Shown here in pieces: positions 7,416 through 28,848 of a DNA stretch of 42,668 nt. Origin of the DNA: Patescibacteria group bacterium UBA6816. Lineage in GTDB: Bacteria > Patescibacteriota > Patescibacteriia > UBA2591 > UBA6264. Each line of letters begins with the position of its first letter. Positions within the stretch are counted from its first letter, which is position 1. The position numbers were made by a program, and so were the translations under genes. The stretch lies in assembly GCA_002452615.1 (NCBI GenBank), contig DKES01000014.1, positions 1-42,668 of the forward strand, written 5' to 3'. The notes under the pieces were generated by a model. That model did not search any database and was not told the DNA's origin. It saw nothing but the letters and a program-made list of their open reading frames with translations.

Positions 7416-9014
7416 ATGCCTAAAAAGAAAAAAGTTTCACCTAAAAAAAGTAAAAAAAAGGTTTCACCTTCAAAAACAAAAAAAATAACTCAAGTTAAGC
7501 CTAAAAAGAAAAAAGTTTCACCTAAAAAAAGTAAAAAAAAGGTTTCATCTTCAAAAACAAAAAAATCAAAAACTAGGCGGCTTTTAAAGTCTCGGCGCGG
7601 AAGACCTCGTTTAACACAAAAGAAAACTCAGGACCAGCCAGAGAAAAAAAATAAAAAGAAATATCAGCCAGAAATTCTTAGAGGAATGAAAGATGTTTTA
7701 CCAGAAGAAACTAAGATTTGGAATTATGTTCTTAGAAGAGCCAGGGATTTAGCCAAGGAATATAGTTTTGAAGAAATTTTTTCTCCTATTCTTGAAGAAC
7801 AAGCCCTTTTTGAAAAGGCAACTGGATTGACTTCAGACATTGTGGAAAAACAAATGTATCAGTTTACTGACCGAGGAGGGAATAAAATAGTGCTTCGGCC
7901 AGAATTAACTCCCTCTATTGTCAGAGCTTATATTGAACAGGGAATGTTTAATCTTTCTCAACCAGTAAAAATATTTTATTTTGGGCCAGCTTTTCGTTAT
8001 GAAAGACCACAAGCCGGAAGAATGAGACAATTTTATCAGTTTGGGTTGGAAACAGTGGGGTCGGCTAACCCTTCGGTTGATGCTCAATTAATTTTATTTG
8101 CTCAAGTTTTGTTTAATTTATTAAATTTAAAAGTTAATATTCAAGTTAATAGTTTAGGGTGTCCGGTTTGTCGTCAGCCATATCGGAATAAATTAGTACG
8201 TTATTTAAAATCTCATCAAAAATCACTTTGTCCTGATTGTCAAAAGAGATTAAAAAGAAATCCTTTAAGGATTTTAGATTGTAAAAATGAAAAATGCCAA
8301 GAAATTATTCAGCAAGCCCCTCAATTAGTTGATGATATTTGTCCGGATTGTCGACAACATTTTGTAAAAGTTTTAGAGTATCTTGATGAAACTAATGTGG
8401 TTTATAAAGTTAATCCTTATTTGGTGCGAGGACTAGATTATTATACGCGGACAGTTTTTGAATTTTTACCTAATCGAGAAGGAATTAAAAAAGAAATTAT
8501 AACCTCGCCTCAAGTTGAGGAAGAAAAAAAAGAGCCGGTTAAAAAGGAAGAAAGGGAAATAAAAGAAGAAAAATTAGGGGCTCAATCCGCTTTAGGGGGA
8601 GGGGGAAGATATGATAATTTAGTAGAAAACCTGGGAGGACGACCTACTCCAGCGGCTGGTTTTGCTTGTGGTTTTGAGAGAATTATTGAAGAATTAAAAA
8701 TTCAAAGAGTAAGTGTTCCTCATTCTCGGCCACCACAAGTATTTTTAGCCCAAATTGGAGAAATTGCTTCTCGTCAAGCTTTAAGATTATTTGAAGAATT
8801 ACGACAACAAGGAATTAGAGTCAAGGAAAATGTAAATAAAACCAGCTTAAAAGCACAAATGGAAATGGCTAATAAGTTGGGAGTAAAAATGACTTTGATT
8901 CTTGGTCATCAAGAAGTTTTAGACCAAACCATTATTATTCGTAATATGCACACTGGTAATCAAGAAATTGTAGACCAGGAAAAAATAATTAAAGAATTAA
9001 AGAAAAGATTATAA
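7416..9014 (+). CDS. hisS: histidine--tRNA ligase with a Lys-rich N-terminal extension
   Basis: 532 aa. The class II HisRS core begins near ILRGMKDVLPEE. Other motifs: LRPELTPS, FRYERPQAGRMRQFYQFG, NPLRILDCK, GGGRYD and a C-terminal anticodon-binding domain. The first ~95 aa are poly-Lys/Ser/Pro. Confidence 0.92.
   Translation: MPKKKKVSPKKSKKKVSPSKTKKITQVKPKKKKVSPKKSKKKVSSSKTKKSKTRRLLKSRRGRPRLTQKKTQDQPEKKNKKKYQPEILRGMKDVLPEETKIWNYVLRRARDLAKEYSFEEIFSPILEEQALFEKATGLTSDIVEKQMYQFTDRGGNKIVLRPELTPSIVRAYIEQGMFNLSQPVKIFYFGPAFRYERPQAGRMRQFYQFGLETVGSANPSVDAQLILFAQVLFNLLNLKVNIQVNSLGCPVCRQPYRNKLVRYLKSHQKSLCPDCQKRLKRNPLRILDCKNEKCQEIIQQAPQLVDDICPDCRQHFVKVLEYLDETNVVYKVNPYLVRGLDYYTRTVFEFLPNREGIKKEIITSPQVEEEKKEPVKKEEREIKEEKLGAQSALGGGGRYDNLVENLGGRPTPAAGFACGFERIIEELKIQRVSVPHSRPPQVFLAQIGEIASRQALRLFEELRQQGIRVKENVNKTSLKAQMEMANKLGVKMTLILGHQEVLDQTIIIRNMHTGNQEIVDQEKIIKELKKRL
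7419..7567 (+). repeat. 81-bp in-frame tandem duplication inside the hisS 5' extension
   Basis: Copy 1 at 7419-7499 and copy 2 from 7500 are identical except for one C/T difference over about 67 nt. Both encode PKKKKVSPKKSKKKVS(P/S)SKTKK. Confidence 0.9.
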
Positions 9015-15049: not shown

Positions 15050-17683
15050 ATGACGGAAAAAGATTTTTTTAAAAATTTGTCAGACCAAGAATCAGATAAG
15101 GGGAAAGAAGAAGAAATAGAGGTTCCAGATTTAACAAAAGAAGAAATAGAAGAAGTAGAAAAGTTAGACAAAGAAAAAATAGAAGATTTAGAAAAAGAAA
15201 TAAATAAAGACCTAGAAAAAGAAAAGGTAGAAAAGGAAACAAAAAAAGAACCAGCAAAAGAAAAAGAAAGTGATAAAAAGGAAAAGACAGAAGAGAAAAA
15301 AGAAAGTAAAAAAGAGAAAACTTTTCAAGAACTTCAACAAGCCAGGGATAATTTAATTAAAGCTGAGATTAATTTTAAAAAATATCAAGGAATTAAAGGA
15401 TTTTTTAAATCAATTGGAGATGGTAAAGACAAGGTTGAACAAGAATATGAAAAAGCAAAAAAGGAATATGAAGGGAAAAAGGCAGAAATTTTTGGAGAAA
15501 ACCTCAATTCATTTTTAAATGAAAGATTAGTTTTAACAGATTTGCGGGCCCAAGAATATAATCAGGAAAAAGGATTTGGTCAAAAATTTTATGATAGCTA
15601 TAAAAAATTAGGGGAATGGAATATTGCCCGACTTTTAGGTAAAGAAACTATTGAAAAATTAGAAAGTCAAGAAGATGACCCCCGAGTTAAGAAAATTCTT
15701 AAAGGAACCGGAAGATTTTTAACCAAAACTCTTTCTGTTAGATTGGGAATTAGTTTTGGTTTATTAGGAGCGGGGTTTGCTTTTGGTGGGGGAATTGGTT
15801 TAGCTGGCGCATTAGCGGCTCGAAAAGGTTTAATTGGAGTAGGAACTGGTTTTGGTACTTATGATTTAATAAAAATGTTTGGTGAAAAAAAAGAATTAAA
15901 AAGGGGGATGAAAAAAGAATTAACCCCAGCAGAATTAGCAAAAATGAACAACGATGAAATTTTAGAAAGAATGACTTTTCTTGAACAAGAGGCCGAAAAT
16001 ACCGGAGAAGAATTAGGTCAGAAAAATAAATTATACAACTCTTTAAAAGAGCAATTTTTAAGAAATAATAAAGAAGTTGACCCTTCTGATAAATTTGATA
16101 TTTTAATAAAAGGGATGGATGAGAAATTAGAAGAAGCAAGAAAAAGGGCTCAAGAAAAAGATTTGAAAAGAAAGGGGATTGCCATAGGAGTGGGAACATT
16201 TATGGGTAGTGGTTTGTTTGGTCAGGCCCTGGGAGAGGGAAAGGACTTTATTTCAGATTTATTTAAAGGAGAAGCCGTTACAGCTGCAGCAACAGAAGAA
16301 TTTGTTTCTAATACCGCGACCGAAGGAGTAGATTTAGCATCAGAGGTTCCAGTTGAAGAAGTGCCAGTATCAGAGGCTCCTATTGAAGAATTAAGTGAAG
16401 AGCCTTTAACAGAATCAGAAATAGAAAAAGAAATAAAAGATTTAAAAGCGGAAAAAGAAGGAATTGCAGCTGGTTTAACTGCGGCCGCAGAAGAAAGTGA
16501 GGAAGTTTTTGTTCCAGAATCATTAGAATATCAAGGTGGAACAAGTATTTGGAAAGAAGTAGAAAATCAATTAAAAGAGAGAAGTGTTTTTAAACAAGTT
16601 TTTGAAGGAGCAGACCAAGCTGAACAGACTCATGCCATTGATTATTTTAAAGATAAAATTGCGGCTGACCCGCAAGAATATGGATTAGCTGAAGGAGTAG
16701 ACGTAGATGAATTAACCGCGGACCAAATGGAAAAAATTGATTGGAATAAATTAATGGAATTAGAAGACCCAGGAGAGGTTGATAAGGCTTTTCCTGAATT
16801 AAGTGATTCTGCCAAACAAAATATTATAGAGAATGATAAAATTTTACAAGAATATGGGCAAAAAACCGGGGAAGCACTAGACACTGATACGGTAGACCAA
16901 GTTTTAAATGATGTCAAAGAAGCGGGTGGAGTAGAAAATTATTTAAGGTCAGAACAGGTTAGTCAAGCCACTAGTTTAAGTGAATTAAATGAACTGGGGG
17001 TGGAAAATATGACTGAAGAACAAGAACGATTATGGGCAATCTATAATGAATACTTAGGAACTAATATTGATGATTATACTCCGGTTTCAGAAGGAGCTCA
17101 AAAAGGGGCCGAAGAATATTTAAATAGTTTAGACCCGGAACAATATGATCAATATTCAGATATTAAAGCGGCTGTTCAAGAAATTCGGGCGAATCACCTT
17201 AATGAAGAATTACAAAAAGGGCAAGGATTTTTACATTTTGGCCAGCCAGACCCGGAAAAATTAATAGAACATGTTCAGGCCCTAACAGAAACCTATAATT
17301 TAGGAGAAAAAGAACAAGCATTTTTTTCCCAATGGTTAGCCGGGGAAGACGGAGTTTTAAAAGCAGATGATTTTAAAGATTTTCTTAGCGGAGAAAAATT
17401 AGATAATTTTAATTTAGAGAAATTTGATGAATCCATTGAAATCTGGCAAGAAAAGGCTCAAAGTATTGAATTGCCCCAAGAAAATATTTGGGAGCCAAAA
17501 TATATTATAAATGAACAAGGTGAAAAACAACTAGTTAATATTAGAGCCGCAGAAGATGGTTATCAAATAGATAGTGTGGGAAACGGAGAAGCTGACGGCA
17601 ATATTTTTATTGGACACAGTAGCGGTTTTTATAAGGCAGATGAAATAAGACAAATTTTACCAGGAGCCCAAATAGAGGGCTAA
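15050..17683 (+). CDS. hypothetical large protein: K/E-rich coiled-coil N-terminus, Gly-zipper hydrophobic segments, long acidic C-terminal region
   Basis: 877-aa uninterrupted ORF. Hydrophobic Gly-rich stretches are encoded at about 15731-15880 and 16174-16240. No known catalytic motif recognised. Confidence 0.8.
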   Translation: MTEKDFFKNLSDQESDKGKEEEIEVPDLTKEEIEEVEKLDKEKIEDLEKEINKDLEKEKVEKETKKEPAKEKESDKKEKTEEKKESKKEKTFQELQQARDNLIKAEINFKKYQGIKGFFKSIGDGKDKVEQEYEKAKKEYEGKKAEIFGENLNSFLNERLVLTDLRAQEYNQEKGFGQKFYDSYKKLGEWNIARLLGKETIEKLESQEDDPRVKKILKGTGRFLTKTLSVRLGISFGLLGAGFAFGGGIGLAGALAARKGLIGVGTGFGTYDLIKMFGEKKELKRGMKKELTPAELAKMNNDEILERMTFLEQEAENTGEELGQKNKLYNSLKEQFLRNNKEVDPSDKFDILIKGMDEKLEEARKRAQEKDLKRKGIAIGVGTFMGSGLFGQALGEGKDFISDLFKGEAVTAAATEEFVSNTATEGVDLASEVPVEEVPVSEAPIEELSEEPLTESEIEKEIKDLKAEKEGIAAGLTAAAEESEEVFVPESLEYQGGTSIWKEVENQLKERSVFKQVFEGADQAEQTHAIDYFKDKIAADPQEYGLAEGVDVDELTADQMEKIDWNKLMELEDPGEVDKAFPELSDSAKQNIIENDKILQEYGQKTGEALDTDTVDQVLNDVKEAGGVENYLRSEQVSQATSLSELNELGVENMTEEQERLWAIYNEYLGTNIDDYTPVSEGAQKGAEEYLNSLDPEQYDQYSDIKAAVQEIRANHLNEELQKGQGFLHFGQPDPEKLIEHVQALTETYNLGEKEQAFFSQWLAGEDGVLKADDFKDFLSGEKLDNFNLEKFDESIEIWQEKAQSIELPQENIWEPKYIINEQGEKQLVNIRAAEDGYQIDSVGNGEADGNIFIGHSSGFYKADEIRQILPGAQIEG

Positions 17684-18753: not shown

Positions 18754-20862
<2,109 letters not shown>

Positions 20863-26916: not shown

Positions 26917-27543
26917 ATGTTAATTAATTCAAAGTGTAAAATTTGTCGCCGGGAAGGAAAAAAGCTCTTTTTAAAAGGAGAGCGTTGTTATAGTTCAAAG
27001 TGTGCTTTAATTAAAAGAAAATATCCCCCGGGAGCCCACGGACAAAAGGGTTACCCGCGTTTATCAGATTACGGTCGCCAATTAAGAGAAAAACAAAGTT
27101 TAAGGCGTTCTTATTATCTTTCAGAAAAACAATTTAAAGCTTATTTTGAAAAGGCAAAAAAAAGAGCTGGTAACACGGAAGAGAATTTTTTAAAGTTATT
27201 AGAACAAAGATTAGATAATGTTGTTTACCGGTCTGGTTTAGTAGATTCTCGCCGAGCGGCTCGACAAATAGTTTCTCATGGCAACATTTTGGTAAATGGC
27301 CGTAAAGTTAATATCCCTTCTTATCAAGTTAAAGTGGGGGATGAGATAAAAATTAAAGAAAAAAAGAACATTGTTAATCAAGTGAAAGAAAGAATGGGGA
27401 GTCATAAAAAAGAAAGCATTTTACCTCCGTGGTTAAGTTTAGATAGCAAAAAATATGAGATAAAAATTATTCAAGAACCAGACATTGAAAGTTTATTAAA
27501 AGAATATGAAATGGAATTAATTGTTGGTTATTATAGTCGATAA
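26917..27543 (+). CDS. rpsD: 30S ribosomal protein S4
   Basis: 208 aa. Has the N-terminal zinc ribbon CKICRREG...CYSSKC and an S4 RNA-binding domain (RLDNVVYRSGL...ARQIVSHGNILVNG). Confidence 0.95.
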   Translation: MLINSKCKICRREGKKLFLKGERCYSSKCALIKRKYPPGAHGQKGYPRLSDYGRQLREKQSLRRSYYLSEKQFKAYFEKAKKRAGNTEENFLKLLEQRLDNVVYRSGLVDSRRAARQIVSHGNILVNGRKVNIPSYQVKVGDEIKIKEKKNIVNQVKERMGSHKKESILPPWLSLDSKKYEIKIIQEPDIESLLKEYEMELIVGYYSR

Positions 27544-27611
27544 ATTATTTTATAGTCGATAAATTATTTTATAGTCGATAAATTATTTTATATATAGTTG
27601 ATAAATTATTT
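27532..27611 (+). repeat. 19-bp tandem repeat (TATAGTCGATAAATTATTT) x3 perfect plus one degenerate copy, spanning the rpsD stop codon
   Basis: Perfect copies at 27532-27550, 27551-27569 and 27570-27588. After a 4-nt TATA insert, a copy with one mismatch lies at 27593-27611. The first copy contains the last 3 codons and the stop of rpsD. Confidence 0.9.
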
Positions 27612-27624
27612 AATACATAAAAAT

Positions 27625-28491
27625 ATGAGAAAAAGTTTTTTTGCTAATAAAGTGGAATACCGCTTAGACAAAGAAAATAAAAATAAAGGAGAAATAATTA
27701 TTGAACCTTGTTGGCCGGGTTATGGTTTAACTTGGGGAAATTCTTTAAGAAGAGTTTTAATTACTTCTTTGCCCGGAGCAGCCGTGACCGCAGTGAGAAT
27801 TAAAGGGGTGAAATATGAATTTACAGCCGTAGATGGAATTAAAGAAGATATTTTGGACGTTATTTTAAATTTGAAATCTCTTCGTTTAAAAATTTTATCT
27901 GAGCAAAAAGAACCAATTAAATTAACCCTTAAAGCTAAAGGAGAAAAAAAGGTTATGGCTGGAGATATTGAAAAAAACGCAGAAGTAAAGATTTTTAATC
28001 CTGATTTACTTTTGGCCACCTTAACTAATAGTAAGGCTAGTTTAGAAATGGATATTTGGGTAAAGCCTGGTTATGGTTGGGTTCCCTCTGAGGAAAAATC
28101 TCGGGAAGGATTTGAATTAGATACTATTGTTACTGATTCTATTTTTAGTCCGGTAGTAAATGTTTCTGTTTCTGTAGAGAATATGCGGGTAGGAAAAAAG
28201 ACTGATTTTGACCGTCTTACTTTAGGAATAGAAACTGACGGCACTATTAATCCTTTAGAGGCTTTTTTACAGGCCAGTACTTTACTCTCAGAACAATTTC
28301 AAATTTTGTCTGATTTAGGAAAAAATATTATTAAACCAGAAAAAAAAGAAAAGATTAAAAAATCAACTGGCAAAAAACAAAAAAAGACAAATAAAAAATT
28401 AACCACGACTAAAAAATCCAAAACAATTAAAAAAGCGTCTAAGAAAAAAGCCCCTAAGAAAAAGGCGACAACAAAAAAGAAAAAGAAATAA
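27625..28491 (+). CDS. rpoA: DNA-directed RNA polymerase alpha subunit, N-terminal domain only, with a poly-Lys C-terminal tail
   Basis: ATG at 27625. Has alpha-NTD motifs (GYGLTWGNSLRRVLITSLPGAAVTAVRI, DFDRLTLGIETDGTINP). The last ~55 aa are KKxK low complexity, and no alpha-CTD helix-hairpin-helix is recognisable. Confidence 0.9.
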   Translation: MRKSFFANKVEYRLDKENKNKGEIIIEPCWPGYGLTWGNSLRRVLITSLPGAAVTAVRIKGVKYEFTAVDGIKEDILDVILNLKSLRLKILSEQKEPIKLTLKAKGEKKVMAGDIEKNAEVKIFNPDLLLATLTNSKASLEMDIWVKPGYGWVPSEEKSREGFELDTIVTDSIFSPVVNVSVSVENMRVGKKTDFDRLTLGIETDGTINPLEAFLQASTLLSEQFQILSDLGKNIIKPEKKEKIKKSTGKKQKKTNKKLTTTKKSKTIKKASKKKAPKKKATTKKKKK

Positions 28492-28497
28492 AAAAAT

Positions 28498-28848
28498 ATG
28501 CGTCATCGAAAAAAAGGAAAAATTCTCGGAAGGAAAATTGGCCCTCGGCGAGCTTTATTAAAGAGCTTAGCAGTAAATTTTTTATTAAAAGAAAAAATAA
28601 AAACTACTGAAGCTAAGGCTAAGGCCATAAAACCAATCGTGGAAAAATTAATTACTCGCGCTAAAAAAAATAATTTAGCTAATTATCGCGAAATTAATTC
28701 TTTTTTACAGAATCGCACCGCGACCAAGAAATTATTAGAAGAAATTGCCCCGCGCTATAAAGAAAGGTCAGGGGGTTATTGTCGCTTAATTAAATTAGGT
28801 CCTCGAAAAGGAGATGCTGCAGAAATGGTTATTTTAGAATTAGTTTAA
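28498..28848 (+). CDS. rplQ: 50S ribosomal protein L17
   Basis: 116 aa with motifs MRHRKKGKILGRKIGPRRALLKSL and GGYCRLIKLGPRKGD. Confidence 0.93.
   Translation: MRHRKKGKILGRKIGPRRALLKSLAVNFLLKEKIKTTEAKAKAIKPIVEKLITRAKKNNLANYREINSFLQNRTATKKLLEEIAPRYKERSGGYCRLIKLGPRKGDAAEMVILELV

Follow-up and report, generated by a model that had tools for sequence, protein, structure and literature searches.

The window, by which we mean the whole stretch of 42,668 nucleotides analysed, carries the rpoA gene for the RNA polymerase alpha subunit, the features of which are collected in Table 1 together with Lys-rich segments of two other proteins. The open frame of rpoA covers 27598..28491 (+) and already begins at a TTG at 27598; the start codon is likely to be the ATG at 27625, which agrees with the N-terminus of the homologue consensus. 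A single match to PF01000 was obtained in the whole genome, giving a copy number of one. By eye, we take the neighbours of rpoA for the ribosomal protein genes of S11, S4, L17 and L13, and the gene following rpoA is presumably that of L17. As only 6 nt separate the rpoA stop codon from the next ATG, there is no space for a separate gene encoding a C-terminal domain of alpha (alpha-CTD) between the two. Upstream of rpoA, we observed a perfect 19-bp tandem repeat (27531-27592, 3.3 copies, TTATAGTCGATAAATTATT), which covers the stop codon of a gene judged by eye to be S4-like and the spacer before rpoA.

Table 1. Location of rpoA, its parts and other features in the window
Feature	Position	Strand	Description
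HisRS N-terminal extension	7416..7607	+	27 Lys in residues 1-60, RGRP at 61-64
GyrB Lys-rich mixed-charge insert	20521..20643	+	residues ~585-625, between Toprim (443-554) and GyrB_C (626-686)
rpoA coding sequence	27625..28491	+	288 aa, TAA stop at 28489-28491; start codon likely
Alpha N-terminal domain (NTD)	27625..28320	+	residues 1-232; PF01193 with PF01000 insert; ends in helix 210-236
Disordered polycationic tail of alpha	28321..28488	+	residues 233-288, at the place of linker and alpha-CTD
Imperfect 15-bp tandem repeat within the tail	28429..28479	+	3.5 copies, 78% matches; encodes KKASKKKAPKKKATTKK
Next gene	28498..28848	+	116 aa; ATG 6 nt past the rpoA stop codon

The first-pass annotation of this DNA had described a normal NTD followed by a basic tail, without a recognisable alpha-CTD, in a protein about 40 aa shorter than the alpha subunit of E. 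coli. This description proved to be correct, the actual difference in length being 41 aa (288 versus 329 aa). A Pfam search with the RpoA protein detected PF01193 at residues 27-225 (4e-19) and PF01000 at residues 57-175 (2.9e-27). The NCBIfam equivalog model for rpoA, TIGR02027, was passed with 243.4 bits at a cut-off of 227.8, and the match covered only positions 2-237 of the 298 positions of the model. None of the 60 solved alpha chains that were found aligns past query residue ~253; residues 20-245 of the 329-aa E. coli chain align to query residues 18-243, and residues 20-234 of the 235-aa chain 1bdf_A to query residues 18-231. In an AlphaFold2 model based on 50 homologues, the pLDDT of the NTD was mostly >90 (at least 90 for 185 residues), whereas residues 241-288 showed values <50 and no secondary structure.

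The tail comprises 56 residues and reads KNIIKPEKKEK...KKKKK. The first-pass annotation had assigned it to 28330-28491, an interval that begins at codon 236 and takes in the stop codon. Its composition is 29 K, 8 T, 4 I, 3 S, 3 A, 2 P and 2 E, with no R, no D and no aromatic residue, resulting in a net charge of +27. Other residues that AT bias would favour are rare in it (2 N, 4 I, 1 L and no F, Y or W). In composition, the tail agrees with the Lys-rich tail of histone H1. The AT-hook core RGRP is absent from the alpha tail of this genome, which is a plain polycation without a G-R-P core. At the DNA level, 65% of the bases in the tail are A, and nine A-runs extend over 6-8 bases each; the local GC content at the rpoA locus is 0.298 and the GC content of the genome 31%. 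The imperfect 15-bp repeat within the tail reads as a trace of growth via short duplications. Of the 29 Lys codons in the tail 7 are AAG, compared to 13% genome-wide. The idea that this codon use is a sign of selection against slippage was dropped, the difference being too small.

The lack of the alpha-CTD was analyzed with the Pfam model PF03118. This model was not found in the RpoA protein even at E<=10, and a search through all six frames of the genome (588,989 bases in 32 contigs, 90.56% complete, about 9% unassembled) likewise gave zero matches at E<=10; the same type of search was positive in 14 of 14 control genomes. That no alpha-CTD is present anywhere in the genome is strongly supported by these results, and a separate CTD gene in this genome was rejected on the basis of the empty six-frame search. 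The many A-runs in the tail region are prone to sequencing error, and the 3'-end of rpoA might in principle be the product of an assembly or frameshift error in a gene that truly bears a CTD, a possibility raised already in the first-pass annotation. The other two frames across 28301-28493 are, however, closed by 2 and 8 stop codons, the next gene begins immediately behind the rpoA stop codon, and PF03118 is missing from all six frames of the assembled genome. Moreover, the same architecture is common to 148 of 148 independently assembled genomes of the class and to 115 of 120 database homologues. An artefact of this kind was consequently rejected, and its probability is negligible.

To the absence in one genome can be added its distribution in relatives. 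Of 61 genomes drawn from the family, order and class of this organism, only one gave a PF03118 match above the cut-off, and this match lies outside rpoA, in an ORF of 244 aa. PF03118 was missing from 115 of the best 120 database homologues of the RpoA protein; the CTD-bearing homologues P0095, P0096, P0105, P0112 and P0116 have a long E/K-rich linker. In a sample of the phylum, 339 of 401 genomes contained PF03118 at E<=1e-5 (a tally that takes in G210, flagged as unpublished, as one matching genome), and the misses concentrate in this class. From the class itself, 161 evenly drawn genomes were searched, and PF01000 was present in 157 of them. We read 148 of the 150 rpoA loci listed, with this genome and a second copy in G519 set aside and nine further matches lying beyond the list. 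Among the matches listed, the NTD was present in 148 of 148 and the CTD in none, and the tails measured at most 80 aa (median, 38 aa), none of them being long enough for, or similar to, a CTD. Five genomes without a PF03118 match, which belong to other families in the phylum, were checked, and all five have a CTD-less alpha subunit with a tail of 22-53 aa. Judged from these genes, the CTD-less alpha subunit is evidently not the quirk of one genome, a point that the first-pass annotation had left unsaid, and loss of the CTD characterizes the class as a whole as well as certain neighbouring families.

Family f44, which belongs to another class, was considered as a second case of loss, with PF03118 at E<=1e-5 in 0 of 15 genomes. 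This candidate was rejected: four of five rpoA loci were read (L037-L040, 309-328 aa), and these full-length ORFs retain a degenerate CTD-like helix-hairpin-helix. As this family keeps a CTD-like fold that PF03118 fails to match, the lack of a PF03118 match does not always equal the lack of the domain.

Orphan ORFs with an alpha-CTD-like domain were observed in five class genomes (L009 in G105, L190 and L193 in G154, L191 in G429, L192 in G277, and L002 in G028). Their lengths range from 110 aa, in an ORF truncated by a contig start, to 467 aa, and they carry the domain at the C-terminus (PF03118, 4.8e-11 to 2.7e-22) without linkage to rpoA. The 467-aa ORF contains a stretch that by eye we take to resemble sigma-70 region 4. 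In G105 and G154, the orphan-bearing genomes whose rpoA was read, the alpha subunit is CTD-less. As a replacement for the lost alpha-CTD, the orphan ORFs are not a general solution.

The tails that stand in place of the CTD were compared at two levels of relatedness. Within the best 120 database homologues, 61 share at least 60% identity in the NTD, and 52 of these have tails that are Lys-rich throughout; the remaining nine comprise four hook-like tails, four with a basic end and one with RGRP. The tails of the 61 close homologues have a median net charge of +23 and a length of 24-84 aa. Their sequences are unrelated and unalignable and often contain short repeats such as KKxVKKxAKK. In close relatives, the tail stays polycationic although its sequence has turned over, partly by short tandem duplications.

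At the level of the class, 147 complete tails were typed, one of the 148 being cut by a contig end. The most frequent type was acidic or mixed with a basic end (60 tails), followed by acidic or neutral tails without a basic end (34), tails with a canonical AT-hook, that is, RGRP (23), AT-hook-like tails (14), the lack of any tail (at most 12 aa; 11 cases), and tails that are Lys-rich throughout (5). RGRP always occurred in a KKKRGRPKK-like context, 3-8 residues before the C-terminus. Shuffling of the tails gave RGRP in a mean of 0.009 tails and in one at most. As the observed number lies far above this level, selection clearly acts on the alpha C-terminus in part of the class, and it favours a peptide known mainly as a reader of the minor groove in AT-rich DNA. 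Conversely, 45 of the 147 class members have either no basic end or no tail, so that class polymerases evidently can work without a basic tail. The Lys fraction of the tail was negatively related to the local GC content (Spearman -0.51, n=136 class members, uncorrected for phylogeny), and the Lys-rich members belong to the lowest-GC genomes, with a median local GC of 0.317. This rise of Lys content with falling GC indicates that mutational bias explains part of the tail composition. Some low-GC class members have tails that are K-rich yet near-neutral, as in the case of L167 (GC 0.296, net charge +1).

Lys-rich segments are found in other proteins of this genome as well. Of the 562 ORFs called (10.1% Lys, 91% coding), 10 have a segment with 13 or more K in 30 aa, whereas 20 rounds of within-protein shuffling gave 2.1 such ORFs on average and never more than 5. 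According to Pfam, eight of the ten ORFs encode alpha, NusA, L21, S9, SmpB, HisRS, an RNase H-like zinc-finger protein and Hsp20, and the other two belong to no family; the first seven of those named handle nucleic acids. In S9, the Lys-rich segment lies in the N-terminal 64 aa. For HisRS (gene 7416-9014), the N-terminal Lys-rich extension described in the first-pass annotation was found ahead of the catalytic domain, which begins at residue 90. The sequence SRRGRPRL directly past this extension contains the sole RGRP among the 562 ORFs. The insert reported for GyrB (gene 18769-20862) is Lys-rich and lies where it had been placed, but it is of mixed charge and stays below 13 K in 30 aa. The suggestion that the genome has a habit of attaching basic tails to nucleic-acid-handling proteins thus holds in a weakened form, the excess over shuffled proteins being real but modest. 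As most carriers of Lys-rich segments handle RNA, the alpha tail might instead bind RNA.

Several observations in this genome (G000) touch on the same subject. NusA (L194, contig C7:5881-7107) has a 40-residue C-terminal tail with 20 Lys behind its KH domains, which is an appendage of the same kind on a second transcription protein. Internal Lys-rich segments were seen in the ORF at 15050-17683 (877 aa) of the window and in an ORF on contig C24 (18571-20634, L200, 687 aa), neither of which matches a Pfam family at E<=0.001. The DNA-binding domains of classical activators, i.e., OmpR-type PF00486, CRP-type PF13545, AraC-type PF12833 and LysR-type PF00126, gave 0 matches in this 90.6% complete genome. 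The simplified activation repertoire predicted in the first-pass annotation is consistent with this result as far as these four families are concerned.

The alpha-NTD and the linker are located near upstream DNA, and AT-hooks and Lys-rich tails prefer the minor groove of AT-rich DNA. Against this background, we favour the reading, at a probability of roughly 0.55, that the rpoA product is a natural, clade-wide CTD-less alpha subunit whose polycationic tail contacts upstream AT-rich DNA sequence-independently. The DNA-contact function of the tail is what we infer from its sequence and position. The tail would exit the NTD at the usual position of the alpha linker, where the polymerase faces upstream DNA. 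With such an exit, both tails of an alpha dimer, which together would carry a charge of ~+54, could contact AT-rich DNA lying upstream of the -35 region through electrostatic or minor-groove interactions that do not depend on sequence. The outcome would be a generic, unregulated form of the UP-element contact, and class I activation, in which activators make contact through alpha, would be gone. In other families of the class, the AT-hook that occupies this C-terminal position might represent another, more specific version of such a solution.

This proposed DNA contact is supported indirectly by the conservation of the polycationic character in 52 of 61 close homologues despite the change in sequence, and by 23 of 147 class tails in which a DNA-reading peptide, the AT-hook, occupies the corresponding C-terminal position. 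The predicted disorder of the tail, its scarcity of other residues favoured by AT bias and the lack of the four activator families also count in favour of it. On the other hand, the 34 class tails without a basic end and the 11 of at most 12 residues speak against a necessary role, the own tail has no AT-hook while the only RGRP of the proteome is attached to the RNA-binding HisRS, and the tails on NusA, L21, S9, SmpB and HisRS would fit RNA binding equally well. The tail might also have no function at all and be a harmless leftover of the linker after an old CTD deletion, shaped by AT bias and by slippage within AAA/AAG codons. The long E/K-rich linker already present in CTD-bearing homologues, the correlation of tail Lys with GC, the low GC of Lys-rich members and of this locus, the A-runs and imperfect 15-bp repeat in the tail DNA, the unalignable tails even between close relatives, and the 45 class members without basic end or tail are all in line with drift. 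We nevertheless regard drift, the main competing reading, as unlikely, since the net positive charge is maintained in the close homologues, tails of the L167 type are K-rich but near-neutral at similarly low GC, and N, I, F, Y and L, which AT bias should favour, are scarce in the tail. In addition, the reading frame is held through many A-runs up to a stop codon 6 nt before the next gene, and the AT-hook that relatives carry in the corresponding place, far past chance, shows that the C-terminus is under selection in the class.

A positively charged tail could also serve another ligand, such as RNA (nascent or ribosomal), an acidic partner protein or, with a role in localisation or crowding, the nucleoid as a whole, as one instance of Lys tags distributed over the proteome. 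The excess of ORFs with Lys-rich segments over the shuffled proteins, most of them acting on RNA, and the location of the sole AT-hook core of the proteome on HisRS would agree with this explanation. It is nevertheless rather improbable in view of the alpha C-terminus, which lies on the upstream DNA face and far from the RNA exit, and of the AT-hook of relatives, which is best known as a reader of the DNA minor groove. If the contact with upstream DNA by the polycationic tail is extended to all relatives, the class and some neighbouring families would initiate transcription without an alpha-CTD, with minimal disordered grips for DNA evolved at the C-terminus of alpha, namely, a polylysine histone-like tail here and an acidic tether tipped by an AT-hook elsewhere, which hold on to AT-rich upstream DNA without sequence-specific UP elements or class I activators. 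This wider proposal is tentative, and we consider it somewhat doubtful in its full extent.

The alpha-CTD is a textbook part of bacterial RNA polymerase. A large uncultured class without alpha-CTD shows that UP-element recognition and alpha-mediated activation are dispensable in nature, and a CTD-less alpha subunit agrees with the finding that classical activators are nearly absent from these genomes. As basic or AT-hook C-termini recur, a folded DNA-binding domain may have been replaced by a minimal peptide. If the tails do grip DNA, the contact between alpha and DNA would be more fundamental than the alpha-CTD fold and could be rebuilt from a peptide. For practical purposes, PF03118 is unfit as a universal single-copy marker of completeness in Patescibacteria.

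Loss of the CTD has precedents in the literature. In the accessible part of PMC8321222, it is described for Hodgkinia and Tremblaya, and one sentence extends it to Parcubacteria and to microalgal chloroplasts; polylysine or AT-hook replacements on alpha are not mentioned in that part. Nelson and Stegen 2015 (PMC4508563) was considered as the source of the statement on Parcubacteria, but the statement was not found there: the main text, as accessible, does not contain the word 'polymerase', and the four supplements list only the presence of rpoA. In a paper from 2025 (PMC12531629), a passage calls the alpha-CTD 'ubiquitously present across all Bacteria', and in the accessible text of PMC12641261 its loss is not mentioned. 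Within its reach, our full-text literature search yielded neither a description of alpha tails made of polylysine or an AT-hook nor, beyond the single sentence in PMC8321222, a dedicated account of CTD loss in Parcubacteria. It is well supported that a known kind of loss, the CTD-less alpha subunit, is combined here with a replacement that is undescribed in the literature searched, and that this is common to a very large uncultured clade.

In Hodgkinia, Tremblaya and the chloroplasts of Euglena, the CTD was lost and the NTD kept in very small genomes (PMC8321222, in the part accessible), and likewise here: the NTD is intact, the CTD is missing from gene and genome, and the relatives are alike. 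These examples are intracellular symbionts or organelles, whereas the present case concerns a large free or epibiotic class.

Comparison of the tail itself leads to AT-hook peptides of the HMGA type, which consist of an R-G-R-P core with Lys/Arg flanks. The tail of this alpha subunit shares with the hook of its relatives the position, the basicity and the disorder, but not the core. Lys-rich disordered DNA-binding tails are known from the C-terminal domain of linker histone H1, the Lys/Ala/Pro repeats of mycobacterial HupB, and the Lys repeats of actinobacterial topoisomerase I. The tail described here resembles them in composition (K, T, S, A and P), disorder, short repeats and fast turnover, which is an analogy by composition and not homology.

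The closest comparison is that with E. coli RpoA, a protein of 329 aa composed of the NTD, a flexible linker and PF03118. Its NTD is orthologous to that of the alpha subunit analyzed here, and rpoA seems, by eye, to lie at its usual place among ribosomal protein genes; the alpha subunit of this genome, however, lacks the CTD determinants for UP-element DNA, sigma region 4 and class I activators. The same domain content is present in the laboratory truncations of E. coli alpha, 1-235 and 1-256, and in the NTD structure 1BDF. In the work of Igarashi and Ishihama (1991) and Ross et al. (1993), enzymes with truncated alpha reportedly assembled and carried out basal transcription, while the responses to UP elements and class I activators were lost. 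The laboratory truncations were engineered in a host that depends on the CTD, whereas the alpha subunit described here represents a natural, old and clade-wide form to which a basic tail has been added.
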